DNA of 64,000 nt, taken from assembly GCA_009873655.1 (NCBI GenBank), contig WAIB01000005.1:54689-118688 (forward strand), read 5' to 3'. The first letter of the stretch is position 1, and each line of letters opens with the position of its first letter. The translations under genes were made by a program, and so were the position numbers. Of the stretch, positions 53,180 through 64,000 are shown in pieces. The notes beneath the pieces were generated by a model. The model ran no database searches and was not told where the DNA came from. It was given only the letters and a program-made list of their open reading frames with translations. The DNA comes from Nitrospinota bacterium. Lineage in GTDB: Bacteria; Nitrospinota; Nitrospinia; Nitrospinales; VA-1.

Positions 53180-54880
53180 ATGCAACCCGAAACGCTTGAA
53201 GAAATAAACCAGGTAAGACAGAATTGCGGTTATTTCTTTATGGATGGTTGGAGCATCCTCACCGCCAGCGGCAAAGAAACTTTTTCTTTTCTGCAAACCC
53301 AAACCACCAACGACGCTTTGCAACTGGAGGTGGGCCAGGGTCAGGCCAGTGCCATAACCGACCGACAGGCACGTTTGATCGCCAACTTTTCCCTCCACCG
53401 CATTGCCGAAAATGAAGGCTGGCTTTTGACAGAAGACTGGCAAACCCTGCACGACCATCTGGAATCCTATCATTTCCGGGAAGACGTGGCTTTCAAGAAA
53501 ATGGAACAAACTCTCTTGACTCTTCAGGGACCCAAAAGCCCCCTGCTCCTTGAAAAAATTTTTTCCTCTCTTCCCGAAAAACCCAATTCAATACTGCGAC
53601 AGGAATTCGAGGGAAAACCCTTTGGTCTCATAAAGAAATCGGTAACGGGGGAAGAGGGTTTCGTAATAGCAATGCCCCAGGAGTTAAAGGAAAAGTTCCT
53701 GGAAAAACTTTTAAACACCAATAAAGATAATCCTCCGATAAAAATCGGTGAACAGGCACGGGAAGTTCTTAGAATCGAAGCGGGGATCCCCGTCTTCGGA
53801 AAAGATATGGATGGGAAGAACATCCTTCCGGAAACCGGTCTGGAACACAGCTCCGTCAGCTATAACAAGGGTTGCTATATCGGCCAGGAAGTCATTGCGC
53901 GAATTAAAACCTATGGAGCCCCCAATTTTGCTTTAATGGGCCTGGCATTTGAAGGACCCATCTCACCTCCAATGAATGGAAATATTTTTCTTGAAGATAA
54001 AAAAATTGGAATCGTCAAAAGCTCCATCCGCTCTGCTTCTCTTGACAAGGTCATCGCCCTGGCGTACCTCCACAAAGACCACCGCAGTCCGGATGTGGAA
54101 ATGGAGGTTTCTATTGATCAGCGTCCTTTTAAAATCAAAACCTGCCTGCTCCCCTTCTACCAGGCCTCTACAAGAATGGAACATTCAAAGAGGCTCTTGA
54201 ATGAAGCCCTTCAAATTTACAAAGAGCAGGAAGACCTCGACAAACCCATAGCCATTTTGAGGGAAGCGATAGATATCTACCCGAAACATGCAGAAGCTTA
54301 TGAAGCGCTGGGGGTTTTTCTCTCGAAACAGGACAAGCTGGATGAGGCGATTGCCCTCATGAAACGCCTGGCGGAAATCAATCCCCAGGAAATCATGGCG
54401 CACACCAATTTGTCGGTTTATTACATGAAACAAGGCCGGATTGAAGACGCTGAAAATGAGAAGGCAGAAGCAACCGCGCTGCAGTTCGAGCAGGCGGTAG
54501 AAAAAAACATGGCAAAAAAATTAAAGAAAAAAGCGGAAGAGCAAAAGAAAAAAGAAATGGAAGAAAAGATCGAAATGTTCAAAAAGGTTTTGGAAATCGA
54601 TCCTGTAGACCAGGTGGCCAATTTCGGATTAGGGTCCATATATCTTGAGACAGGGCGTTACGAAGAGGGCATTGGCCCCCTGACCACCGTTGTCGAAAAA
54701 TTCAAAGACTATTCAGCCGCCTACCTGTTACTGGGAAAGACCCTGGAGAAATTATCAGAAAACGAAAAAGCCATTGACGTCTATAAAAAAGGGATTGCCG
54801 CGGCCTCAAAAAAAGGCGACCTCATGCCTCTCAAAGACATGCAGAACAGAATGAATCAGCTATTACACTCTTCGCCCTGA
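53180..54880 (+). CDS. ygfZ: YgfZ-type folate-binding protein (GcvT-like fold) fused to a C-terminal TPR / charged coiled-coil region
   Basis: Track ORF of 566 aa. The N-terminal roughly 330 aa carry the YgfZ signature KGCYIGQEV. The C-terminal roughly 230 aa contain TPR-like repeats (AEAYEALGVFLSKQDKLDEAIALMKRLAEINP...) and a KKKAEEQKKKEMEEK stretch. Confidence 0.8.
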   Translation: MQPETLEEINQVRQNCGYFFMDGWSILTASGKETFSFLQTQTTNDALQLEVGQGQASAITDRQARLIANFSLHRIAENEGWLLTEDWQTLHDHLESYHFREDVAFKKMEQTLLTLQGPKSPLLLEKIFSSLPEKPNSILRQEFEGKPFGLIKKSVTGEEGFVIAMPQELKEKFLEKLLNTNKDNPPIKIGEQAREVLRIEAGIPVFGKDMDGKNILPETGLEHSSVSYNKGCYIGQEVIARIKTYGAPNFALMGLAFEGPISPPMNGNIFLEDKKIGIVKSSIRSASLDKVIALAYLHKDHRSPDVEMEVSIDQRPFKIKTCLLPFYQASTRMEHSKRLLNEALQIYKEQEDLDKPIAILREAIDIYPKHAEAYEALGVFLSKQDKLDEAIALMKRLAEINPQEIMAHTNLSVYYMKQGRIEDAENEKAEATALQFEQAVEKNMAKKLKKKAEEQKKKEMEEKIEMFKKVLEIDPVDQVANFGLGSIYLETGRYEEGIGPLTTVVEKFKDYSAAYLLLGKTLEKLSENEKAIDVYKKGIAAASKKGDLMPLKDMQNRMNQLLHSSP

Positions 54881-56574
54881 CCTTTCACAAATTTCCAAAT
54901 ATCCTCACCCGGATTCAAAATTCCAGACTTGATGATTTTCTGATTTATGATCACACCGTGATCCATTAGAAACCAGAATCGTAAAAGCAGTTTTTCTTCT
55001 GGTGTGGTGTACGCGTCTTCCCATTGGGTGGTGGACTTGTGGGATGCGATGGCGTTATAAAGAGAGGCAGGAATATCGAGCCTCTTTTTCTGGATGAAGC
55101 TTTTATATCCTTCCAACAATATAGATTGAAACTGTTTTCTACTGATCTTGATCAACTCTGAAACACTGGGTATTTGGTTATCGTGATATTCGAAAAACTT
55201 CAGCTTGTAATATTGGTGAATGGTTTCCAAACGAAAATAACAGTGAAGTTCAGAAACCTGATCGCCATAAACTTTTTCAAGGTATTTTCGAATCAAAGGT
55301 TTTCCAGCCTTCAGCAAAAGCTTATTGAGTCGGCCCCGCTCAAATAAATGGATACGGACCGTGCTCAGATGCTTGGTGCATTGAGCTTCAATATCAGCTC
55401 TGATTCTTTGTCCATTCGGAGGAATGCGATACCAGACGATTTCATCACTGGCCACCTGCAAGGATTGCTGAAAGGCTTCGCTGATTTGATGGTTGTTGGA
55501 CCGTTTCGCCTGCTTGGCGATCATGTAAGCATTGTCTTTTAAAAACCCAAGGTCCAACAACTCGTTTTGAAAAACCTTGCGGTTGCCCATCAAAAACCCG
55601 CCCCGCTCTTTAATATGGTCTTTCGCTTTATCCACTCCTCTTAGGGCAAGGCTCACATCTCTGGGCATTAAGTCCAATCCCAGTTCTTGAGAAAACTCAT
55701 AAATCTCTTCAAGCGTTTTATAATTCAACTTGTCAATGAATAGAAATTTTTGAATATTGGCCTCACTGAAGTTGCAGGCCTCGAAAATTTTAATTTTTTT
55801 GTATTTGATTTCTTCCCAGTATTTGCGCGTACCTTCCTTTTTCTTAAACTGCGATTGAATTTCAGATCTTGCTTTAAAAAAATAACTTCGCAACAAATAC
55901 CACTCGCTTTCGAGAGTGGACTCAATAATCCAAATGTATTTTGGAGTTAAAACGGGAAGCTTGGGGTCATCCAGAAGTTTGATTTCACCCGTGGCGAGAA
56001 TATAATCGAGCAAATCCAAATGCCGTTCCAGGAGAATTGGGTTTATCTGCTCAATGAACTTCCGAAAAATCGTTTTCCAGCGAAAGGGATCAAATTCCTG
56101 AACGGACTCCGTCAACTTCTTTTGCTCTTTCAACGTCTTTTTAACCCGCTGCAAGCCGTTTTTTTCCATTTTTTCGAACAGCTTATCTCTTCCTGATATA
56201 TCGCTGATCTTTATTTGTTTCAGCCGACCGATCAATGAGGGGATTTTTTCGGAAAATTGCAGGTCAAATTCTTCATAGGAACCGGCATCTGAAAAATAGA
56301 CCTCTGAGAGCAGGTCATCCACGTAATCGAGAGAGGCCACCACTTTTTTGACCAGTTTTTTATAAAGGTCAAAATCGAGGTTTTTATTGCCCGTTTGACA
56401 AGCACGGATATCATTTAAAAAAGTCCGGGCCCTTTTCGTTTCTTCAGGCTGGGAATGGGGATCATTGATGACATTTAGAAACAGGCTTTCGGCCCCTTGC
56501 AATTCCCGCTTGGCAAGGAGTTCCAGCCCTTGTGTCATGGAATCATAAATAAACATAAAAAATTTGAATCCCAT
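54856..56574 (-). CDS. hypothetical protein, 572 aa, no recognisable domain
   Basis: A long uninterrupted track ORF, Lys-rich, with one TPR-like helix pair at the N-terminus. Its 3' end overlaps the convergent ygfZ fusion gene by 25 nt. No convincing SD was seen, so the start is uncertain. Confidence 0.6.
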   Translation of the reverse strand: MGFKFFMFIYDSMTQGLELLAKRELQGAESLFLNVINDPHSQPEETKRARTFLNDIRACQTGNKNLDFDLYKKLVKKVVASLDYVDDLLSEVYFSDAGSYEEFDLQFSEKIPSLIGRLKQIKISDISGRDKLFEKMEKNGLQRVKKTLKEQKKLTESVQEFDPFRWKTIFRKFIEQINPILLERHLDLLDYILATGEIKLLDDPKLPVLTPKYIWIIESTLESEWYLLRSYFFKARSEIQSQFKKKEGTRKYWEEIKYKKIKIFEACNFSEANIQKFLFIDKLNYKTLEEIYEFSQELGLDLMPRDVSLALRGVDKAKDHIKERGGFLMGNRKVFQNELLDLGFLKDNAYMIAKQAKRSNNHQISEAFQQSLQVASDEIVWYRIPPNGQRIRADIEAQCTKHLSTVRIHLFERGRLNKLLLKAGKPLIRKYLEKVYGDQVSELHCYFRLETIHQYYKLKFFEYHDNQIPSVSELIKISRKQFQSILLEGYKSFIQKKRLDIPASLYNAIASHKSTTQWEDAYTTPEEKLLLRFWFLMDHGVIINQKIIKSGILNPGEDIWKFVKGQGEECNS

Positions 56575-56958: not shown

Positions 56959-57783
56959 TTACCTGGGTTCACACTCCGAAGGTGCGTTTGCAATCAGGTC
57001 GTTCTCCATACTGTAGGATAACGACCGATATTCAGGCTCTTCTACCTTAACCGGCTTGATATCCAGCAGAAGGTTTTCATTTCGCAGAAAAATGGCCAGG
57101 ATATCTACGATATCTTTGTAGAGTCCTCGCTCGGCTTTCCGGGAAGTAAAAATACAGAACAGAGGGCCCCACCGGCCCAGATGGTTCCTCATGAATTTCT
57201 TCATGCTGCTGGTCAAGACATTAATGTTTCGTTCATCATGCCCATTCTGCACCCCATAGGCGGTTCTAAAACACATGAAGAACATGAAAGCCAACTCGAT
57301 GGAGAGATGATCCACTCTTTCCTTGGTTCTGTTTCGCGGCTGCTCAAACCCAAAGGTTTCATAGAACCCTCCTAATTGAATCAATACATCGGTTTGGGAT
57401 TGGATACCCCCTTCCGTACCGTATTGCATTTCATAGGGAGGACATTCCATTGATACCGCATGGCCGAAAACACGAACATATTCCTGCTGTACCTGTTTGA
57501 CGGTCATTTTAGGCAGATATTTGTCAAAGCCTTCTATAATTGACTTAACGTGATTCCAGTCTTCTTCATCCACCAGAGCAATATCCAATGGCTCAAGCAA
57601 CGACTTGGGCCGGAAAAACTTTCGATTCCAAGGATAACTGAACGCGCTGGAAAGTATATCGTAACAACGGCCTCTTGCCAGCTGCAGAGAAATTCGCTCT
57701 TCTTTCAACTCCTCCAGAGAACCGGTCTGACCAAGAACCGCGAGCATCGGGTCACTTGCTTTAGCTTGAGTAACATCTCCCAT
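56959..57783 (-). CDS. TorD/NarJ-like redox-enzyme maturation chaperone (type II DMSO-reductase family chaperone type)
   Basis: Track ORF of 274 aa: RGRCYDILSSAFSYP, QQEYVRVFG....ECPPYEMQYG, GGFYETFGF...ERVDHLSIELAFMFFM. This follows the E(Y/F)..(L/V)F / PYE..YG / DH...EL.FM pattern of PF02613-type chaperones. Confidence 0.75.
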   Translation of the reverse strand: MGDVTQAKASDPMLAVLGQTGSLEELKEERISLQLARGRCYDILSSAFSYPWNRKFFRPKSLLEPLDIALVDEEDWNHVKSIIEGFDKYLPKMTVKQVQQEYVRVFGHAVSMECPPYEMQYGTEGGIQSQTDVLIQLGGFYETFGFEQPRNRTKERVDHLSIELAFMFFMCFRTAYGVQNGHDERNINVLTSSMKKFMRNHLGRWGPLFCIFTSRKAERGLYKDIVDILAIFLRNENLLLDIKPVKVEEPEYRSLSYSMENDLIANAPSECEPR

Positions 57784-57863
57784 TTTTCTTAATCTCCATA
57801 TTGTTTCAGAAATTCCGGCCCATTGGAGGCACCCGAAATCTGAATTGATTCACGCCGCACAGG

Positions 57864-59042
57864 TTAACCAACACCGGCCCGTAATTCATACACCTCAACA
57901 CATCGGTCACATGCGCCATCTTTACTTTCCCAGTCCGGAAAATCAATCTGGATTGCTTCAATGACCATTTCATCACAAATACTTTCAGGATCATCCACCC
58001 AGTTATAAGTTGGGAATTTGCATAATGGGCAAGGCGAACCTTGAAGATGGATGAAATCCCGCTCTTCTTCTGAAATTTCTCCCGGGTCAACATATTTACT
58101 CATTAAAGTATCAAGATCGGTGGCCATCGAGAGAAGTTCTTCATGTGTAAACTTTTCTGTTATCCAGATTCCTTCAAAAATTCCCCTTCTTTGCTTATCC
58201 GGAATTTTTCGGTAGAAATTATCAAACTCACGAAACCGGGCTTCCTTGGGCAGGACAGATACAACACCCATTCGAGCCAGCCGGGCATCGACATACATAT
58301 TCCACAGAAGTCTGAAACGCGAGGTAATTAGATTCTTTACGGATGGGTTGCCGGGAATGAATGCGTCCTCATAGTCAAACTCGGGATCGACCATATCCTT
58401 GGCATGCATGAACTCCTGTATCAGAAAGGCATCCAGATCCATTGCTTCTTCCGGGTTGCTGAACCGGCTCGCGAGCACTCTCATTTCAATAATCGGGTTG
58501 CCTGAAACCCGGTTGAGAACATTGGAGCCTTCATCCACTTTGTTGATCGCTCTTTTTACGACGACTTCTTTGATGCGCTCTTCAAATTCGCGTGCCAGAT
58601 CGTAAGCGATCTCATCATTATTTTCTTCGGGTTCGGGACTTTCTTCAGGGCCGGACTCCTCTTCCGCTACGGCTACCAACTCATTCTCGTTTTGTTCCTC
58701 TTCCGCTGTTTCAGAGGGTATTTCCCCCTGCTCTGCAGCAGGTTCTGCTTCCTCGTTGGACTTGAGTAAAGCGGATTTTTTGGAGGTTCGTTTTCTCTTT
58801 GGGATAAGGCCTACCGCTTCCAGGGCTCTTAAAACATGATCGCCCAGCTTGAGTTTTTCCAGGAAAAACAGGCGGTTTACTTTTTCGAAGGCGACTTCCC
58901 GATCATCTTCAGGAAGTTCATAAATGGGATCGGCCAGGGAATGAAATTCGTCATAATCAGAGCGGTAACCCGACCGTTCCAGATGGTTCAAATGCCGGAA
59001 TACCGACTCTTCCATTAACTGAGCACTGTAACTAACTTTCAT
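57864..59042 (-). CDS. hypothetical protein, 392 aa, with an acidic low-complexity linker and a C-terminal CxxC...CxxC zinc-ribbon-like motif
   Basis: Track ORF. It has a Glu-rich segment (EEAEPAAEQGEIPSETAEEEQNENELVAVAEEESGPEESPEPEENNDE) and a C-terminus SPCPLCKFPTYNW...DGACDRCVEVYE. It lies 80 nt upstream of the TorD-like gene on the same strand, with no terminator between them. Confidence 0.65.
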   Translation of the reverse strand: MKVSYSAQLMEESVFRHLNHLERSGYRSDYDEFHSLADPIYELPEDDREVAFEKVNRLFFLEKLKLGDHVLRALEAVGLIPKRKRTSKKSALLKSNEEAEPAAEQGEIPSETAEEEQNENELVAVAEEESGPEESPEPEENNDEIAYDLAREFEERIKEVVVKRAINKVDEGSNVLNRVSGNPIIEMRVLASRFSNPEEAMDLDAFLIQEFMHAKDMVDPEFDYEDAFIPGNPSVKNLITSRFRLLWNMYVDARLARMGVVSVLPKEARFREFDNFYRKIPDKQRRGIFEGIWITEKFTHEELLSMATDLDTLMSKYVDPGEISEEERDFIHLQGSPCPLCKFPTYNWVDDPESICDEMVIEAIQIDFPDWESKDGACDRCVEVYELRAGVG

Positions 59043-59133: not shown

Positions 59134-59163
59134 AATTTAGCTCCTTTTAAAGGCTTATGTCAA
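59134..59163 (-). promoter_or_regulatory. possible sigma70-type promoter TTGACA-N18-TAAATT for the 392-aa gene
   Basis: Minus strand reading: cTTGACAtaagcctttaaaaggagcTAAATTacc, about 90 nt upstream of the ATG at 59042. Confidence 0.3.
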
Positions 59164-59379: not shown

Positions 59380-61989
59380 TTATTTCTTATCGATCTCATC
59401 TCTCATTTTTTCCATGGCCTGGATGGCTTCCATGATCGGTTCAGGATCCCCGAGGTCACGGGCAATTTCACGCGCATCCTTCAAATAACTATCGAACTCA
59501 TCAAACCGACCCACGAGCAACTGCATTCTTGCCACCGTCAAGTTAAACTGGATCAAATTCGACCAGTTTTTTGTTTCACGAAAACATTCCGCAGCCTGTC
59601 CAAAATATTTTTCCGCGTCATCGTATTTTAAATCCTTGAACTTCAGATTCCCCAGATACGTTAAATCCTGACCGGCTCCCCTCTTGTCATCCACCGCCTG
59701 AGTGAGTTCCAATGCTTTCAAATACAGCTCTTCAGCCTCTTTTCGCTTCCCATTACTGAATGCGAGGTTTCCAAGATTGCGATAGTCTTCGGCGATTTCG
59801 GTTTTGTCATTCAATTTCCGGGATATCTCAAATGCCCGGTTGAAATCGTTGTTGGCTTTTTCGCGGTACCCTCTTTCCATATTAAATTTTCCCAGGTTCC
59901 TGAGGTCCGCGCAGATTTCCTTGGGTTCGTTGAGGTTTTCAGAAGTTTCCAGAGCTTTTCCATAAAACTTCTCCTGGCTGGCCCGTTCTTTTTTCTCAAC
60001 ATAAATTTTTGCCAGCACCCGGCTGTCTGCGAGAACATTACGGGCGTCGTTGATTTCTTCGGCAATTTCAAATGCTTTTAAGGCGTATTTCTCCGCATTC
60101 TCCCAGTCTTCCTTTTGCAGATAGAGGTTGTACTGGTTTCGATTGTCTTCGGCAATTTCACGTTTATTATCCGCACTGGTATTCAATGCCAGCGCCTCAA
60201 GATAATTTCTCTCGGCACCGGACCAGTCTTTTTTCTGCAGACAAATATTTCCGAGGTTTCGATAATCTGCCACCAGGCCCTTCGCATTGTTGGCAGCCTT
60301 GTTTATCTTCAAGGATTTATTCACCAGTTTTTCGGCCTTTTCCATCTTTCCTGCCAGAATCAAAACATTGAGATAATTCGCATACAGTTCTTTAAGGCCT
60401 GTCTGGTCCTTCAATTCCTCTTTAAGCTTGATGGCGTTACTGTAGTTTTCCTCCGCCCCCTTAAAATCCTCCTTCTGCATCAAGATGCTTCCCAGGTTTC
60501 CGTAGGCTCCACCCAGCGCTTGTTTATCTCCGGATTTTTCATGCAAGGCAATCGTTTCCTTTGCCACTTCTTCCGCTTCATCCCAGTTGCTGGACATGAA
60601 CAAAACGTTGCCCAGATCGTTCAACAACATCAGCTTGAGCTTGGGATCCTTTTCCGCTTCTGGTTTTTTCAGTCCCTCGCGAATGGCCTGTTTGCGATTC
60701 TCCAGGTATTTTGGCTGCGAGAAGATGAACATCAATTTATCCTGGACTCCCTGAACCCTTGCCTGCTCTTTCATTTCTTCATAAAGATCACTGGCACGCA
60801 TGAAATGGTCTTCCGCCTTATCGAACTCTTCTTTTTTTAGAAAGATGTCACCCAGTGATTCACATTGCTGGGCGATCCCGGGCCGGTTTTCATTTTTTTC
60901 CATCAACTCCAAAGACCGCAGATACTGCTCTTCTGCGGCATCCCAGTTTTTCTGCAGGCCGCGGACATTACCCAGGTTGGCATAACTGCGCGCCTCACCC
61001 AGCGCGTCACCCAGCTCCTGCATGGTTTTGAGGGATTTCTCAAAATTTTCCCAGGCCAGTTCGAGTTTGTTCTGGTTGAGGTAAATGTTTCCCAGGCTGC
61101 CGAGAAGGTAAGAGTTCCTGCGTTTGTCGGAGTCCCCAATGACCTCCAGGGCTTTTTTGAAATACGTTTCCGCCTCATCCACTTTTTCAGGCTGGCCCTC
61201 CGTGGACATTTGCAAATAAATACCCGCTAGATTCGCATAGCAAATACCGGCAGAAGCTTTGTCGCCCAACTCCTCCAAAAGGGTCATGGTTTTTTGGATG
61301 GTCTCGATCACCTTGTCCATGCGGTTCCACTGGAAATAGATTTCTTCGAGTTCCTGCAGTTTGGAGATGGCTTTGGTTTTTTGTCCCGTGGAGATAAGTG
61401 ACTCCACGTCCGCGGCAAGGGCTTCTTCGTTTTTCTTTAAAAACAGGGGGGATTTTTTAATCGAATCAATGCGATCTTCGAGCTGCTTTATTTTTCTTTC
61501 ATCCTGCTTTGCAGCAGCCATGAACTCTTTGGCTTTTTCGTAATACTCAATCGCCTTTTCGGCTTCCTCTTTTTTCAAAAAGATATTGCCCAGGTATTCA
61601 CTGTAGATGCCCTGCCCCAAAGGGTCGTTGGCCTCAACCATAATCTGCATGGCCTTCTGGTAATTTTCTTCCGCTTTGTCGAAGCTTCCCTGGTAAAAAT
61701 AAACGTTACCCAGATTGCCCAGGGAGCTTTCTATTCCCTTTGCATCTTTCAACTTTTCCATGAAAGTGAGTGAACGGGAATAAAACTCTTCCGCCTTGTC
61801 AAATTGCTTGCTCTGAAAACTGATATTGCCCAGGTTACCCAAAACATAAGCCTGCCCCGCATCGTCGCCTTCCTTTTCCATCTCCTTCAAGGCGGCAAGG
61901 AAATTGGTCTCTGCTTCCTGGATGTTGTTCTTCTGCAAATTCTCGTAACCGAGATTTTCCAGCTTTCTTCCTTCACTCACTTCACTCAT
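59380..61989 (-). CDS. large tetratricopeptide-repeat protein (about 20 repeats of about 40 aa, TPR_10/12 type)
   Basis: Track ORF of 869 aa. It shows repeated A......LGN.g.vy...g.fdkAee.y.kaL.i.e.l.d motifs from N- to C-terminus with no catalytic domain recognised. A GAAGGTGG SD lies upstream. Confidence 0.9.
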   Translation of the reverse strand: MSEVSEGRKLENLGYENLQKNNIQEAETNFLAALKEMEKEGDDAGQAYVLGNLGNISFQSKQFDKAEEFYSRSLTFMEKLKDAKGIESSLGNLGNVYFYQGSFDKAEENYQKAMQIMVEANDPLGQGIYSEYLGNIFLKKEEAEKAIEYYEKAKEFMAAAKQDERKIKQLEDRIDSIKKSPLFLKKNEEALAADVESLISTGQKTKAISKLQELEEIYFQWNRMDKVIETIQKTMTLLEELGDKASAGICYANLAGIYLQMSTEGQPEKVDEAETYFKKALEVIGDSDKRRNSYLLGSLGNIYLNQNKLELAWENFEKSLKTMQELGDALGEARSYANLGNVRGLQKNWDAAEEQYLRSLELMEKNENRPGIAQQCESLGDIFLKKEEFDKAEDHFMRASDLYEEMKEQARVQGVQDKLMFIFSQPKYLENRKQAIREGLKKPEAEKDPKLKLMLLNDLGNVLFMSSNWDEAEEVAKETIALHEKSGDKQALGGAYGNLGSILMQKEDFKGAEENYSNAIKLKEELKDQTGLKELYANYLNVLILAGKMEKAEKLVNKSLKINKAANNAKGLVADYRNLGNICLQKKDWSGAERNYLEALALNTSADNKREIAEDNRNQYNLYLQKEDWENAEKYALKAFEIAEEINDARNVLADSRVLAKIYVEKKERASQEKFYGKALETSENLNEPKEICADLRNLGKFNMERGYREKANNDFNRAFEISRKLNDKTEIAEDYRNLGNLAFSNGKRKEAEELYLKALELTQAVDDKRGAGQDLTYLGNLKFKDLKYDDAEKYFGQAAECFRETKNWSNLIQFNLTVARMQLLVGRFDEFDSYLKDAREIARDLGDPEPIMEAIQAMEKMRDEIDKK

Positions 61990-62220: not shown

Positions 62221-62250
62221 TTGACAGACTGGAAGAAGGCTCACTATAAT
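62221..62250 (+). promoter_or_regulatory. perfect-hexamer sigma70 promoter TTGACA-N18-TATAAT (drives the ORF starting at 62298)
   Basis: Read directly: ggTTGACAgactggaagaaggctcacTATAATcacc. The -10 hexamer ends 48 nt before GTG 62298. Confidence 0.6.
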
Positions 62251-62297
62251 CACCTCTTCATTCTCACAAGCAAAGCAACACCACGAAAGGATCCATA

Positions 62298-64000
62298 GTG
62301 GCCAAAGTTGAAAAAATCATAGAGGCATTGACCCGGGAAGGGTCATTGATATTCGCACAAAATCTGTCCTATGCAGAAGAGCTTGAAAAAAAGATTCCCG
62401 AATTAAAAAAGGAAGAAAAAGACGATTGTGAATTCTGGTATGAAAATGATGCCCCCACCGTCGCCAATACCCGGGTCAAAATTTTTCCGACGGGGCATAT
62501 CGTTTTCTACAATGAGGAAGGACGGCGATTTCTCTGCACGGATCCAGACGGCATTCCGCTTCACGAGGCGTTATGGACCGAAGATGAAAATACCGGGGAA
62601 ACGCAACTGTCCCTCGCCCGCATGCAGTTGGACTGCAAACAATGGGTCGGTATAAAACCCCGGGCCAAAACCTTCTCAACCCAAATCGATATCAGCCCCC
62701 ACGAAGGCTGGGAAAACATGTCTCTCGACGACCTTCGCGAAAAAGCCGCCGAAGCCTGGAGGGTACCCGCATCAGAAGTAAAGTATTTTTATGATGACGA
62801 ACATATGGTTCATCAAGGCGAAGGCAAATACGATATCCGCCTCACCAAGGACGGACTTTATGCCCTGCACGAAGGCACGTTCGACAAATCCATATTCATC
62901 AGTTTCATGTTCCAGGTCAACTGGGCCAAACTCGACTTAATCCCTGTCGTGGAACTGTTTCAATCAACCCTGCCGGGAACCGGTGGAGCCGTCTTTGAGT
63001 TCATCTGGGGAATTTACAACGACCAATCGCGGGAAGAAGAGCTACCACCCCTGAGGTATCGCGGTCTGCCGACCTACCCATCCAAGGAAGCCTTTAATAT
63101 TTTCTCAGCATTCTTTGAACCGAAAGGACCTGAAGGAAAAAATATCAAAACGGTTTTTATGGACCCACAAACCTCGCATGAAATCACCTGGACTCCGCAA
63201 AAACACCCGCCGGTTCGTTATTTCAGCGAGCAACAACAAGTCGCCATCACCGCCCAGGACGGTTACCTTTACAAAGTCACGGTGTTTGACGACCCCATTA
63301 CCTTTCCGTTCACCAACTGCGTTGGAGTGAGAAAGCCCCCCATCCAGAGAGAGGTCCGGGTGGGAAACCAGACGTTGACCCTTCTGGAAGGGGAACAGGG
63401 AAAAGAAATTCTATTCGAACCCAGTTGGAACCTGAGGCCGCAAACCTATTCCACAAAACTGCAAGACAAACACCCTTTTACCTGGAAATGGTTTTTTAAC
63501 GGCGAACCTCCAAGAGTTGATCCGGTAAAATCCCTTTACACCGTTCCCTTCTATCCAGAAGGCCAGGCGGACATAGACGAGTCTTCCATGCAACCCATGG
63601 TGCTGGATCAAATATTTCATTACATGGAAATGGCACCGGGAATGCCGGCCAAGCTGGAAAAAATGGAATCGGTACTCATCCACACTTTTGACACCGTCCT
63701 CGCGGGCTGCATCGACAGCTCGAAAGACCGGATTTACACCGTGCTTTTCAGTGACCCTGAGTTCGCGCAAAAAAACGCACAACTCTTATGGAACTACGCC
63801 GCCTCGCGCGATCAGCTGAGCAATCTGGAGAGGGTTTCGTTCCTCGAAGAAAAAGAACATATTCAGGATGCCTACAGCCAGAAATACGACCTGATCTTCA
63901 AATGGATTCCTTTCATGTACCATCAGGATCGCGAAGCCTGTGAAAGTATGTTGCTGGCTCTATCAGAAGCATTACAGCCGGGCGGGTTCATGTTCCTGAT
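62298..64000 (+). CDS. hypothetical protein, more than 567 aa, open at the right window edge; the last visible residues resemble part of a class I methyltransferase-like fold
   Basis: Not in the track because it is open-ended. I checked every codon from GTG 62298 (AAAGGA SD 6 nt upstream; in-frame TAA at 62247-62249 upstream) to 64000 and found no stop. Translation: MAKVEKIIEALTREGSLIFAQNLSY...TLPGTGGAVFEFIWGIYNDQ...YDLIFKWIPFMYHQDREACESMLLALSEALQPGGFMFL. The fDlIf...L.PGG.l.l pattern is MTase-like, but no GxGxG motif is seen upstream. Confidence 0.7.
   Translation, partial: MAKVEKIIEALTREGSLIFAQNLSYAEELEKKIPELKKEEKDDCEFWYENDAPTVANTRVKIFPTGHIVFYNEEGRRFLCTDPDGIPLHEALWTEDENTGETQLSLARMQLDCKQWVGIKPRAKTFSTQIDISPHEGWENMSLDDLREKAAEAWRVPASEVKYFYDDEHMVHQGEGKYDIRLTKDGLYALHEGTFDKSIFISFMFQVNWAKLDLIPVVELFQSTLPGTGGAVFEFIWGIYNDQSREEELPPLRYRGLPTYPSKEAFNIFSAFFEPKGPEGKNIKTVFMDPQTSHEITWTPQKHPPVRYFSEQQQVAITAQDGYLYKVTVFDDPITFPFTNCVGVRKPPIQREVRVGNQTLTLLEGEQGKEILFEPSWNLRPQTYSTKLQDKHPFTWKWFFNGEPPRVDPVKSLYTVPFYPEGQADIDESSMQPMVLDQIFHYMEMAPGMPAKLEKMESVLIHTFDTVLAGCIDSSKDRIYTVLFSDPEFAQKNAQLLWNYAASRDQLSNLERVSFLEEKEHIQDAYSQKYDLIFKWIPFMYHQDREACESMLLALSEALQPGGFMFL

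Follow-up and report, generated by a model that had tools for sequence, protein, structure and literature searches.

The present analysis suggests that two adjacent genes of an uncultured marine Nitrospinota bacterium, one coding for a 274-aa maturation chaperone and the other for an uncharacterised acidic protein of 392 aa, are probably the remains of a collapsed nxr operon. Within this explanation, the identity of the locus and the assignment of the chaperone to NxrD are very likely. That the 392-aa protein takes part in maturation, for which the gene neighbourhood is the evidence, is a tentative reading with slightly less than an even chance.

The window, by which we mean the whole 64-kb stretch of DNA analysed, maps to WAHZ01000002.1, a contig that ends ~1.2 kb past the right edge of the window. 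The initial annotation of this stretch had reported the two ORFs at coordinates that our analysis confirmed exactly (Table 1); the genes have the same orientation, with 80 bp between them. It had also noted that no molybdoenzyme was in sight, which holds within the window, where tblastn searches with NxrA, NxrB and NxrC retrieved no similar sequence and the large ORFs are housekeeping genes. No nxr genes were present in the 10 kb to the left of the window, and nxrA and nxrB of the source genome were not located in the view consisting of the window, this left flank and the contig end on the right. A Nitrospinae MAG encodes a protein with 100% identity to the 392-aa protein, and in a homology search with NxrB all Nitrospinota NxrB sequences fell into one cluster. 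The right end of the window, which is poor in ORFs, yielded no RNA genes or tRNAs; it is a partial ORF running off the edge.

Table 1. Coordinates of the gene pair, its signals, its flanks and the parts of the 392-aa protein (positions in the window)
Feature	Residues	Position	Strand	Basis or remark
572-aa protein		54856-56574	-	conserved downstream flank in Nitrospinota, context only
Two consecutive hairpins after chaperone stop codon		56856-56920	-	sequence reading and terminator scan
274-aa ORF (nxrD, TorD/NarJ-family maturation chaperone)		56959-57783	-	ORF list
80-bp spacer		57784-57863	-	chaperone-gene ribosome-binding site GGAGA; alignment to nxrB-nxrD spacer of relatives
392-aa ORF (cytoplasmic acidic protein, uncharacterised NXR-linked family)		57864-59042	-	ORF list
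Cys4 module of 392-aa protein	330-392	57867-58055	-	
Central domain of 392-aa protein	146-329	58056-58607	-	
QEFMH, window version of the family HExxH	209-213	58404-58418	-	
Disordered acidic linker of 392-aa protein	83-145	58608-58796	-	
N-terminal helical domain of 392-aa protein	1-82	58797-59042	-	
sigma70-type promoter-like element TTGACA-18-TAAATT		59134-59163	-	scan match 10/12, upstream of 392-aa gene
869-aa TPR protein		59380-61989	-	Pfam TPR families; conserved upstream flank in Nitrospinota, context only

The membership of the 274-aa protein in the TorD/NarJ superfamily is well founded. PF02613 (Nitrate_red_del), whose cut-off is 22.2 bits, matches residues 78-210 with 69.1 bits (E 5e-19) over nearly the whole model, and the PYE..YG / DH..EL.FM signature that had been reported is present as CPPYEMQYG and VDHLSIELAFMFFM. 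The narrower part of the earlier chaperone call, namely the type II DMSO-reductase subfamily (which comprises SerD, EbdD and DdhD), was not supported. The best NCBIfam matches are TIGR03482, EbdD and TorD, with TIGR03482 first, but its score of 65.9 bits falls far below the cut-off of 152.3, and the EbdD model gives 49.2 bits against a cut-off of 360. Compared with the TorD/NarJ/DmsD maturation proteins, SerD, EbdD and DdhD included, the window chaperone is longer, having N- and C-terminal extensions around a core match of ~135 residues. In the PDB, sequence matches were confined to two members of the TorD family, AF0160 and TtrD, and were weak (E 0.2).

Over approximately its full length, the 274-aa protein shares 75% identity with the 'putative TorD-like chaperone' of N. 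gracilis 3/211 and 81% with its orthologue in Ca. Nitromaritima. Both proteins also carry a PF02613 domain, and the N. gracilis gene (NITGRv1_550001) is likewise separated from nxrABC, beside nxrC3 (PMC3578206; PMC5029188). In that organism the TorD-like chaperone gene lies apart from two nxrABC operons, and the suggested task of its product is to load NxrA with the Mo cofactor ahead of Tat export (PMC3578206); in Ca. Nitromaritima, the gene order is nxrABDC (PMC5029188). Hence both the NxrD chaperone and its separation from nxrABC are already described for N. gracilis (PMC3578206, PMC5029188). The window locus differs from these two in that it also has no nxrC and its chaperone gene directly follows the 392-aa gene.

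In a synteny set of 68 Nitrospinota loci, a common scaffold was observed, consisting of a TPR gene, the 392-aa gene, a site X, the TorD-like gene, a site Y and the 572-aa gene, where X holds nxrA-nxrB, nxrB alone or nothing, and Y holds nxrC or nothing. Four of the 68 loci are complete (392-aa gene, nxrA, nxrB, nxrD, nxrC); the gene identities are supported by the Pfam models Molybdopterin, Fer4_11, EB_dh and Nitrate_red_del, and nxrA has the Tat leader MRLNRRKFLQ. At 13 further loci nxrA begins right behind the 392-aa gene and is cut off by the end of the contig, at six nxrB directly follows the 392-aa gene, and at 30 nxrD does so, which is the arrangement of the window. The chaperone is 72-98% identical to the gene in the same position at the 35 of the 68 loci that contain it. 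Its positional orthologue lies between nxrB and nxrC in L029, L031, L035 and L058, and identity to the gene so placed in relatives is 77-92% (84% for L029). By sequence as well as by position, the 274-aa protein thus falls into the NxrD orthologous group of Nitrospinota. Co-encoding with a Tat-dependent Mo-bisPGD enzyme, absent in the window, is found at the orthologous loci, where the gene stands behind an nxrA with a Tat leader. The flanks are conserved as well. The TPR gene is upstream of the 392-aa gene in 65/68 loci; the sequence of the remaining three begins with the 392-aa gene or immediately ahead of it. The 572-aa gene, which has no Pfam match above cut-off and was not found at non-Nitrospinota loci, is downstream of nxrD or nxrC in all sufficiently long loci except L024, L032 and L040. 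An 88-aa ORF between nxrA and nxrB in L073 was considered as Lücker's "putative zinc finger" and rejected, as it contains no cysteine.

The 80-bp spacer of the window aligns with the distal stretch of the spacer that separates nxrB from nxrD in relatives, and therefore marks a deletion junction. In a sister genome (L014), ~1.26 kb is missing relative to L015, and the spacer holds a relic consisting of the last ~40 nt of nxrB. Taken together, the relic and the spacer match point to the gene pair being a collapsed nxr operon. The comparison of loci establishes a reconstructed ancestral order of promoter, 392-aa gene, nxrA with its Tat leader, nxrB, nxrD (TorD-like) and nxrC. By the same comparison, the window lineage is marked by deletion of nxrA and nxrB between the pair and by a missing nxrC at its usual place after nxrD, so that only 80 bp now separates the first operon gene from the fourth, with the conserved promoter still in front of them. 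The orphan status that had been presented as an oddity is therefore only local; the two genes make up the flank of a Nitrospinota nxr operon that has lost nxrAB by deletion.

The transcription signals proposed earlier for the pair were recovered as well. Taken alone, the promoter-like match is no better than chance (3 sites found versus 4.6 expected), but the -35 box and an A/T-rich -10 of the element upstream of the 392-aa gene are conserved upstream of orthologous 392-aa genes, with or without nxrAB following. A palindrome, CCTTTAAAAGG, lies inside the promoter spacer (59153-59143). Within the 80-bp spacer, the terminator scan predicted no terminator. Downstream of the chaperone gene, sequence reading revealed a GC hairpin (56920-56903, GGGGCGCTGTGGCGCCCC) and the terminator scan a second hairpin, with a 9-bp stem and then a T-run (56895-56870); this tandem structure is a probable intrinsic terminator.

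Could the adjacency be an assembly artefact, collapsed or skipped nxr repeats hiding nxrAB between the pair? The nxr region does form a ~5.8 kb repeat with 99% identity between two loci, and many MAG contigs break right behind the 392-aa gene. However, direct adjacency recurs in 30 independent assemblies, several of them single-chromosome (L011, L014, L061, L045, L055), the spacers are conserved within clades, and the junctions lie outside the repeated sequence. Furthermore, the nxrB relic of L014 is decayed and carries an indel, which a collapsed repeat would not give rise to. We regard an artefact as extremely unlikely.

The chaperone might instead serve a client other than NXR, with the 392-aa protein belonging to a new pathway. 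The empty surroundings (no molybdoenzyme in the window or the adjacent 10 kb) and the sub-threshold TIGR03482 score would agree with such recruitment, which had been raised in the initial annotation, but nothing in our data indicates it, and its probability appears very low. The orthology to the gene between nxrB and nxrC speaks against a changed client, as do the deletion scars, which denote recent loss of nxrB or nxrAB from the same site, and the extreme conservation of the chaperone (nxrD dN/dS ~0.01), with no sign of a functional shift. Besides, the genes are separated in the same way in N. gracilis, which is a bona fide nitrite oxidiser (PMC3578206). The client of the window chaperone is almost certainly a Tat-exported NxrA encoded elsewhere. 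In the cytoplasm, NxrD would capture the pre-NxrA that another nxr copy of the genome gives rise to, keep it bound while the Mo-bisPGD cofactor and the FS0 cluster are put in place, and finally pass the NxrAB complex on to the Tat translocon.

Cytoplasmic and lacking a signal peptide, the 392-aa protein (pI 4.55) matched no Pfam or NCBIfam family. The poly-acidic linker attributed to it is real, with 20 Glu in 64 residues; this segment is predicted to be disordered, and its length varies among relatives. The C-terminal CPLC...CDRC motif is genuine too; its four Cys show no or almost no variation among 111 diverse homologues (C338 and C341 in 111/111, C378 and C381 in 110/111). These two conserved CxxC pairs form a small C-terminal module modelled with pLDDT ~90-97, for which the only related Pfam hint is zf-Tbcl_FmdE (E 0.43, 3 members). 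The 392-aa gene has a dN/dS of ~0.03, and both it and the chaperone gene are under strong purifying selection.

The central domain carries a motif that reads HExxHxxDxxD across the family, i.e., HExxH followed by D216 and D219. Among the 111 members, H209 is present in 85, E210 in 108, H213 in 98, D216 in 110 and D219 in 94; in Nitrospinota sequences, residue 209 is His in 39/62 and Gln in 23/62. The window protein has QEFMH and hence no intact HExxH zinc-binding or catalytic motif. The first His has given way to Gln in the window protein and is missing from ~23% of the family, which disfavours obligatory zinc-dependent catalysis. The His-to-Gln change did not correlate with loss of nxrAB at the locus, the Gln type occurring also where nxrA follows (L030, L035, L036).

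The AlphaFold2 model of the 392-aa protein (pLDDT 87.1, pTM 0.80) predicts three strands and then a long helix bearing the HExxH-type motif; a second family model is also confident (pLDDT 94.5). A PDB profile search (hmmsearch) with the family was empty, Foldseek with the two models gave no significant match (best E 0.097 against the PDB and 0.17 against BFVD), and Pfam applied to the 111 members at E <= 5 produced nothing that reached cut-off. The non-significant Foldseek tops and sub-threshold Pfam matches are dominated by zincin peptidases (M61, M1, selecase, Spartan/SprT, M76, M91). The family motif has the same ligand spacing as the HEXXHXXGXXD of Asp-zincins and mini-zincins (PMC3890501), D219, the putative third metal ligand, standing at +6 from the second His. 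In contrast to these peptidases, the residue at +3 is Asp rather than Gly and the window protein carries Gln for the first His; the family also has an additional N-terminal helical domain and the C-terminal Cys4 module. ATP23 (Peptidase_M76) offers a comparison as an assembly-factor peptidase, peptidase activity being putative in the 392-aa family.

The family is large (746 representative clusters at 50% identity), has neither a Pfam model nor a PDB relative, and extends beyond Nitrospinota. It adjoins TorD-like and/or Tat-NxrA-like genes in Nitrospira and a Planctomycetota MAG, and did so at 69/69 metagenome loci with adequate flank in a contig scan that used a family sub-alignment and whose sample is biased towards Nitrospira-type members. 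Twin-arginine leaders were present in 13/13 neighbouring NxrA-like proteins checked (11 outside Nitrospinota, 2 Nitrospinota copies). A candidate Kuenenia homologue, kustd1699, located just upstream of nxrA, was rejected, being a blue-copper protein (PMC11897245).

In Nitrospira, the members P0247 and its cluster mate P0391 are ~39% identical to the 392-aa protein. The corresponding gene of Nitrospira moscoviensis appears to be NITMOv2_3627 (annotated as a conserved protein with no assigned function), an identification made from its 999 bp length and from synteny in the order WD40 gene, family gene, NapG-like ferredoxin, TorD-like and nxrC_2. Its cluster, NITMOv2_3614-3631, has been called diagnostic for nitrite oxidation (PMC12342949), and the gene is transcribed above the median during nitrite oxidation (PMC6606698), at a level ~7-fold less than that of the TorD-like gene. 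Unlike the window protein, Nitrospira family proteins have no long acidic linker and have a canonical HELMH, and at the Nitrospira locus the NapG-like ferredoxin gene intervenes between the family gene and the chaperone gene.

These data bear on whether the 392-aa gene is a mere conserved neighbour with an NXR-unrelated function, such as that of a general cytoplasmic peptidase, kept in place by chance or operon inertia. Its only moderate expression in N. moscoviensis would fit, and so would its absence from a second nxr locus type (type 2) of Nitrospinaceae, which has its own nxrD; the two genes are thus not obligatorily adjacent to every nxr copy. However, the linkage survives at least five gene orders across Nitrospinota, Nitrospirota, the Planctomycetota MAG and unassigned metagenome contigs, and at loci with adequate flank a Tat-NxrA-like or TorD-like gene is always found no more than two genes away from the family gene, with no such locus lacking them. 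A fortuitous neighbour is therefore quite improbable. Occurrence of the family apart from any TorD-like neighbour, which would have spoken against a functional link, was looked for across the sampled loci and was not found. The earlier suggestion of an accessory factor for a type II DMSO-reductase-family enzyme fits this strict co-occurrence across phyla, as far as gene context can tell.

A regulator of nxr expression, e.g., an anti-activator or a zinc-ribbon nucleic-acid binder, is also unlikely, although several observations would suit it. The 392-aa gene is promoter-proximal, upstream of nxrA; the equivalent upstream position at locus type 2 holds a sigma54 activator; the Nitrospira family gene is downstream of genes for a two-component system that includes a sigma54 activator; and zinc ribbons are often nucleic-acid binders. 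In contrast, the protein is strongly acidic throughout, down to the Cys4 module (pI 4.05), which is unfavourable for DNA or RNA binding, and no helix-turn-helix or other regulator domain was detected by Pfam, including in the 111 members. Moreover, in several lineages (L083, L085, L090, L096) the family gene is at the operon 3′ end, after nxrD or an alternative nxrC, and the 392-aa gene is co-oriented and predicted to be co-transcribed with structural and maturation genes.

We thus return to maturation as the role of the 392-aa protein. It would be a cytoplasmic metal-binding partner in NxrA maturation, comprising a very divergent zincin-like core (HExxHxxDxxD, here QExxH) and a Cys4 zinc module, and its most likely function would lie in the assembly, proofreading or processing of NxrA/NxrB, possibly with no catalysis in the window lineage. 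A stronger proposal would be that the family is a dedicated, unrecognised maturation factor of periplasmic, Tat-exported NXR-type molybdoenzymes, a zincin-derived Cys4 protein without a solved fold relative that works with NxrD and is required for active NXR. This proposal is doubtful at present; were it true, the protein could possibly process or proofread NxrA/NxrB, or chaperone the hitch-hiking NxrB.

NXR is the source of essentially all nitrate in nature, and the assembly of the periplasmic enzyme is poorly understood. The chaperone part of our finding is ordinary and already published; the useful part is the unnamed large partner family, devoid of domain annotation and of a structural relative. 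The comparison of loci further shows that nxr genes enter and leave a fixed Nitrospinota scaffold by deletion and by recombination between near-identical copies, which accounts for the frequent breaks of MAG contigs at this locus. It also warns that "orphan" accessory genes in fragmented assemblies should not be taken as novel biology. Among the sampled loci, no other accessory gene kept so constant a place next to Tat-exported NXR-type enzymes in several phyla. Therefore, the 392-aa family may be considered a concrete candidate for a missing assembly factor, for instance in heterologous co-expression of NXR.

The initial annotation described an orphan TorD/NarJ-type chaperone gene paired with that of an acidic zinc-ribbon protein, with no molybdoenzyme in sight, and this observation is confirmed. 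Both reading frames were exact in position and length on ORF calling, and the promoter-like element upstream and the tandem hairpins downstream are present in the sequence. The former, TTGACA-18-TAAATT, was located by a promoter scan about 90 bp 5′ of the 392-aa gene; the latter follow the chaperone stop codon, with a T-run after the second hairpin. The two genes are separated by 80 bp, in which a terminator scan predicted none and a GGAGA ribosome-binding site precedes the chaperone gene. By tblastn, no sequence resembling NxrA, NxrB or NxrC (molybdopterin, Fe-S and EB_dh haem proteins of nitrite oxidoreductase, NXR) was found within the 64-kb window, whose remaining large ORFs are housekeeping genes. 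The window corresponds to about 148,745-212,744 of WAHZ01000002.1 (213,979 bp); no nxr genes occur in the 10 kb to its left, and to its right the contig stops about 1.2 kb past it. The partial ORF at the right window end had no Pfam match at E ≤ 0.001.

Coordinates of the gene pair and of related features
Feature	Location	Strand	Remarks
392-aa gene	window 57864-59042	-	ORF call
274-aa chaperone gene (nxrD)	window 56959-57783	-	ORF call
Palindrome CCTTTAAAAGG	window 59143-59153	-	perfect; between -35 and -10 boxes of the conserved promoter
572-aa protein gene	window 54856-56574	-	no domain match; weak NADAR match only (19 bits)
Partial ORF, at least 583 aa	window 62250-64000	+	divergent from TPR gene; crosses right window end
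392-aa gene, nxrB, nxrD, without nxrA	L015:10001-13466		chromosome OZ253582.1
392-aa gene, nxrA, nxrB, nxrC, nxrD skipped	L159:5034-11910		
Second nxr locus type	L155:3987-13731		
Stretch common to both nxr locus types	L155:7578-13335; L157:3-5760		
197-aa NapG-like ferredoxin gene, Nitrospira	L069:11142-11735		equivalents in L086-L154
88-aa ORF, Planctomycetota MAG	L073:14386-14652		cysteine-free, acidic

Previously, Nitrospina gracilis has been reported to carry two nxrABC operons and a single TorD-like gene apart from both, adjoining nxrC3, whose product was proposed to put the Mo cofactor into NxrA ahead of Tat export (PMC3578206). In Ca. Nitromaritima, the gene order is nxrABDC and the chaperone is called NxrD (PMC5029188). 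Therefore, neither the chaperone nor its location away from the enzyme genes is new. There is no sign of recruitment to a different client, one of the initial proposals. The 274-aa sequence contains the chaperone motifs quoted in the initial annotation and passes PF02613 (Nitrate_red_del, TorD/NarJ family; 69.1 bits, cut-off 22.2), but its best NCBIfam match, TIGR03482, stays far under the cut-off (65.9 vs 152.3 bits). The family and orthology of the chaperone are established, and proteins with a TorD-like annotation in the marine nitrite oxidisers N. gracilis, N. watsonii, Ca. Nitrohelix, Ca. Nitronauta and Ca. Nitromaritima share 70-92% identity with it. NXR, the key enzyme of these organisms, is a periplasmic, Tat-exported molybdoenzyme of the type II DMSO-reductase family (PMC3578206).

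A 'Nitrospinae bacterium' MAG encodes a hypothetical protein with 100% identity to the 392-aa protein, and a genome scan found 68 Nitrospinota loci encoding this protein. Their content, determined by tblastn with the window proteins and NxrA, NxrB and NxrC from one of the loci as queries, follows a fixed scaffold: TPR gene, 392-aa gene, variable position X, TorD-like gene, variable position Y, 572-aa gene and an opposite-strand GCV_T-TPR gene. Four complete loci (L029, L031, L035, L058) hold nxrA-nxrB at X and nxrC at Y. At L029, X encodes a 1153-aa molybdopterin oxidoreductase (leader MRLNRRKFLQ) and a 425-aa Fer4_11 protein, and a secreted EB_dh haem-b protein is encoded past the chaperone gene. 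Thirteen contigs stop inside nxrA just past the 392-aa gene, six loci have nxrB alone at X, including the single-chromosome assembly L015, and 15 contigs stop within 275 bp of the 392-aa gene. In the other 30 loci X is empty and the TorD-like gene lies next to the 392-aa gene; nxrC occupies Y in eight of these, while Y is empty, as in the window, in 18.

The empty state of X arose by deletion, as two sequence comparisons show. In the spacer of L014, a complete chromosome in which the two genes adjoin, the terminal ~40 nt of nxrB survive, with an indel, and ~1.26 kb has been lost compared with its sister L015. The 80-bp spacer of the window can be aligned to the distal portion of the nxrB-nxrD spacer. 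That the adjacency is instead an assembly artefact is very unlikely, since 30 independent assemblies, including several single chromosomes, show it and the scar has decayed. Thus, the pair is a collapsed nxr operon, and deletion of nxrAB from a conserved scaffold locus accounts for the puzzling lack of an enzyme beside it. Both genes are under strong purifying selection (dN/dS ~0.03 for the 392-aa gene and ~0.01 for the chaperone gene). Since the -35/-10-like element is kept in full and empty loci alike, its most plausible role is that of promoter of the ancestral nxr operon. A possible operator site is the palindrome between its boxes, which the window's clade and its near relatives have kept. 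Throughout Nitrospinota, nxrD or nxrC is directly followed by the 572-aa gene, which in the window runs 25 bp into the convergent GCV_T-TPR gene at its 3′ end; at the NXR loci of other phyla this gene was not found.

A likely place for the enzyme genes is suggested by related Nitrospinaceae, which have a second nxr locus type (L155, L156, L158, L160-L164), consisting of a divergent sigma54 activator, nxrA, nxrB, nxrD, nxrC and an opposite-strand rhodanese gene; no 392-aa gene is present there. A sigma54-like motif, TGGCATATAACTTGCT, lies upstream of its nxrA, whereas the scaffold locus has a sigma70-like promoter, and these signals suggest that the two nxr copies are under different regulation. 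A stretch of ~5.8 kb is 98.9-99.7% identical in DNA between the two types, and their NxrD proteins are identical (L155 vs L157). Because of this near-identical repeat, contigs break systematically just past the 392-aa gene: 31 of the 68 MAG/SAG contigs (L005, L013, L018, L021-L023, L025-L028, L030 and others) stop inside nxrA or nxrB, or at most ~300 bp past the 392-aa gene. Two intermediates, one without nxrA (L015) and one in which nxrD is skipped (L159), suggest recombination between the paralogous copies.

Outside Nitrospinota, the family is likewise found in NXR-type operons.

Gene order around the family gene outside Nitrospinota
Source	Gene order
Nitrospira	family gene, NapG-like Tat ferredoxin, TorD-like, nxrC, radical-SAM gene; TatA and second EB_dh gene close by
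Planctomycetota MAG	cytochrome c/EB_dh protein, family gene, NxrA-like, 88-aa ORF, NxrB-like, TorD-like
Metagenome L075, L076, L082, L095	family gene, NxrA; contig stops within or soon past nxrA
Metagenome L078	family gene, NxrA, NxrB, TorD, alternative NxrC
Metagenome L079-L081	family gene, small ferredoxin, NxrA
Metagenome L083	NxrC, NxrA, NxrB, TorD, family gene
Metagenome L085, L090, L096	NxrA, NxrB, TorD, alternative NxrC, family gene

Among 80 metagenome loci, mostly Nitrospira-type, TorD-like, NxrA-like or NxrB-like genes adjoin the family member in all 69 with adequate flank, and none contradicts the linkage; the other 11 are short (seven with ≤2 kb downstream, four with <1.2 kb on either side). 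Each of 13 neighbouring NxrA-like proteins that were checked, two of them Nitrospinota copies, has a [S/T]RRxF[L/M] leader. Linkage of the family to Tat-exported NXR-type operons is therefore strict. In Nitrospira, the NapG-like ferredoxin (twin-arginine motif GRRDFLK) always lies between the family gene and the TorD-like gene. The 88-aa ORF of the Planctomycetota MAG occupies the position of kustd1701 ('unknown protein') in Kuenenia. NxrB-like proteins (P0407-P0525) that share 63-69% identity with Nitrospinota NxrB are encoded by MAGs with the labels Dehalococcoidia, Anaerolineae, Acidobacteria, Actinomycetota, Armatimonadota, Poribacteria, Xanthobacteraceae and others. Judged from these sequences, the periplasmic NXR-like clade is much wider than the classical nitrite oxidisers, and the 392-aa family probably is too.

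The 392-aa protein matched no Pfam or NCBIfam model, and none of 10 sampled or 111 aligned members reached a Pfam threshold. In an exhaustive HMMER search, clusters at 50% identity numbered 746 at E ≤ 1e-3 and 460 at E ≤ 1e-10; the majority are 300-330 aa long, 30-40% identical to the window protein and without its acidic linker. That linker, noted initially together with the C-terminal CPLC...CDRC motif, is Glu-rich, variable in length and predicted to be disordered; the motif is present as described. In the 111-member alignment, E210, D216, F222, R242, W247, R254, H300, C338, C341, C378 and C381 are invariant or nearly so. The central motif, HExxHxxDxxD, has the same ligand spacing as the Asp-zincin HEXXHXXGXXD (PMC3890501), but its His residues are less conserved (first 85/111, second 98/111) than the acidic ones. 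The window protein reads QEFMH here (residues 209-213) and so lacks the HExxH that defines zincins; Gln takes the place of the first His in 23 of 62 Nitrospinota sequences. Confident AlphaFold2 models of the window protein (pLDDT 87.1, pTM 0.80) and a compact member (pLDDT 94.5, pTM 0.88) place an N-terminal helical domain before three strands, a long motif-carrying helix, further helices and a small Cys4 module. Structure searches gave no significant match (best E 2.4 and 0.097 in the PDB, 0.17 in BFVD, predicted viral); the top of these matches is mostly zincin peptidases (M61, M1/LTA4H, selecase, ColH, Spartan/SprT, PprI), and the weak sub-threshold Pfam matches are the zincin families M76, M91 and M90. 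Given the motif, the models and this enrichment, we read the family as having a putative zincin-like core, very divergent, within an architecture that otherwise has no precedent. The His-to-Gln/Arg replacements suggest that its conserved activity may be binding rather than catalysis.

By synteny and length, the Nitrospira moscoviensis orthologue is NITMOv2_3627, a 'conserved protein of unknown function' within the cluster NITMOv2_3614-3631, termed diagnostic for nitrite oxidation (PMC12342949). During nitrite oxidation it reached 327 RPKM (rank 729), about level with the adjacent NapG-like gene (328 RPKM), while the TorD-like gene was ~7-fold higher (PMC6606698 supplement). According to Lücker et al., the NXR clusters of Nitrospina, Nitrospira and Kuenenia have 'one putative zinc finger' protein in common, which may belong to this family. 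As a Kuenenia homologue, kustd1699 was ruled out, being a blue-copper protein.

NxrD would work in trans, with pre-NxrA supplied from an nxr copy at another site in the genome. The 392-aa protein, presumably cytoplasmic since it is acidic and has no signal peptide, would probably act in the same maturation step as an assembly/proofreading factor or processing peptidase. A regulatory role is less likely, as the protein is acidic throughout, Cys4 module included (pI 4.05), and some lineages carry the family gene at the 3′ end of the operon. The chaperone is a known component in an already published arrangement. The interesting part of the locus is the 392-aa protein, whose family is a real, uncharacterised and probably NXR-specific accessory protein that deserves experimental follow-up.
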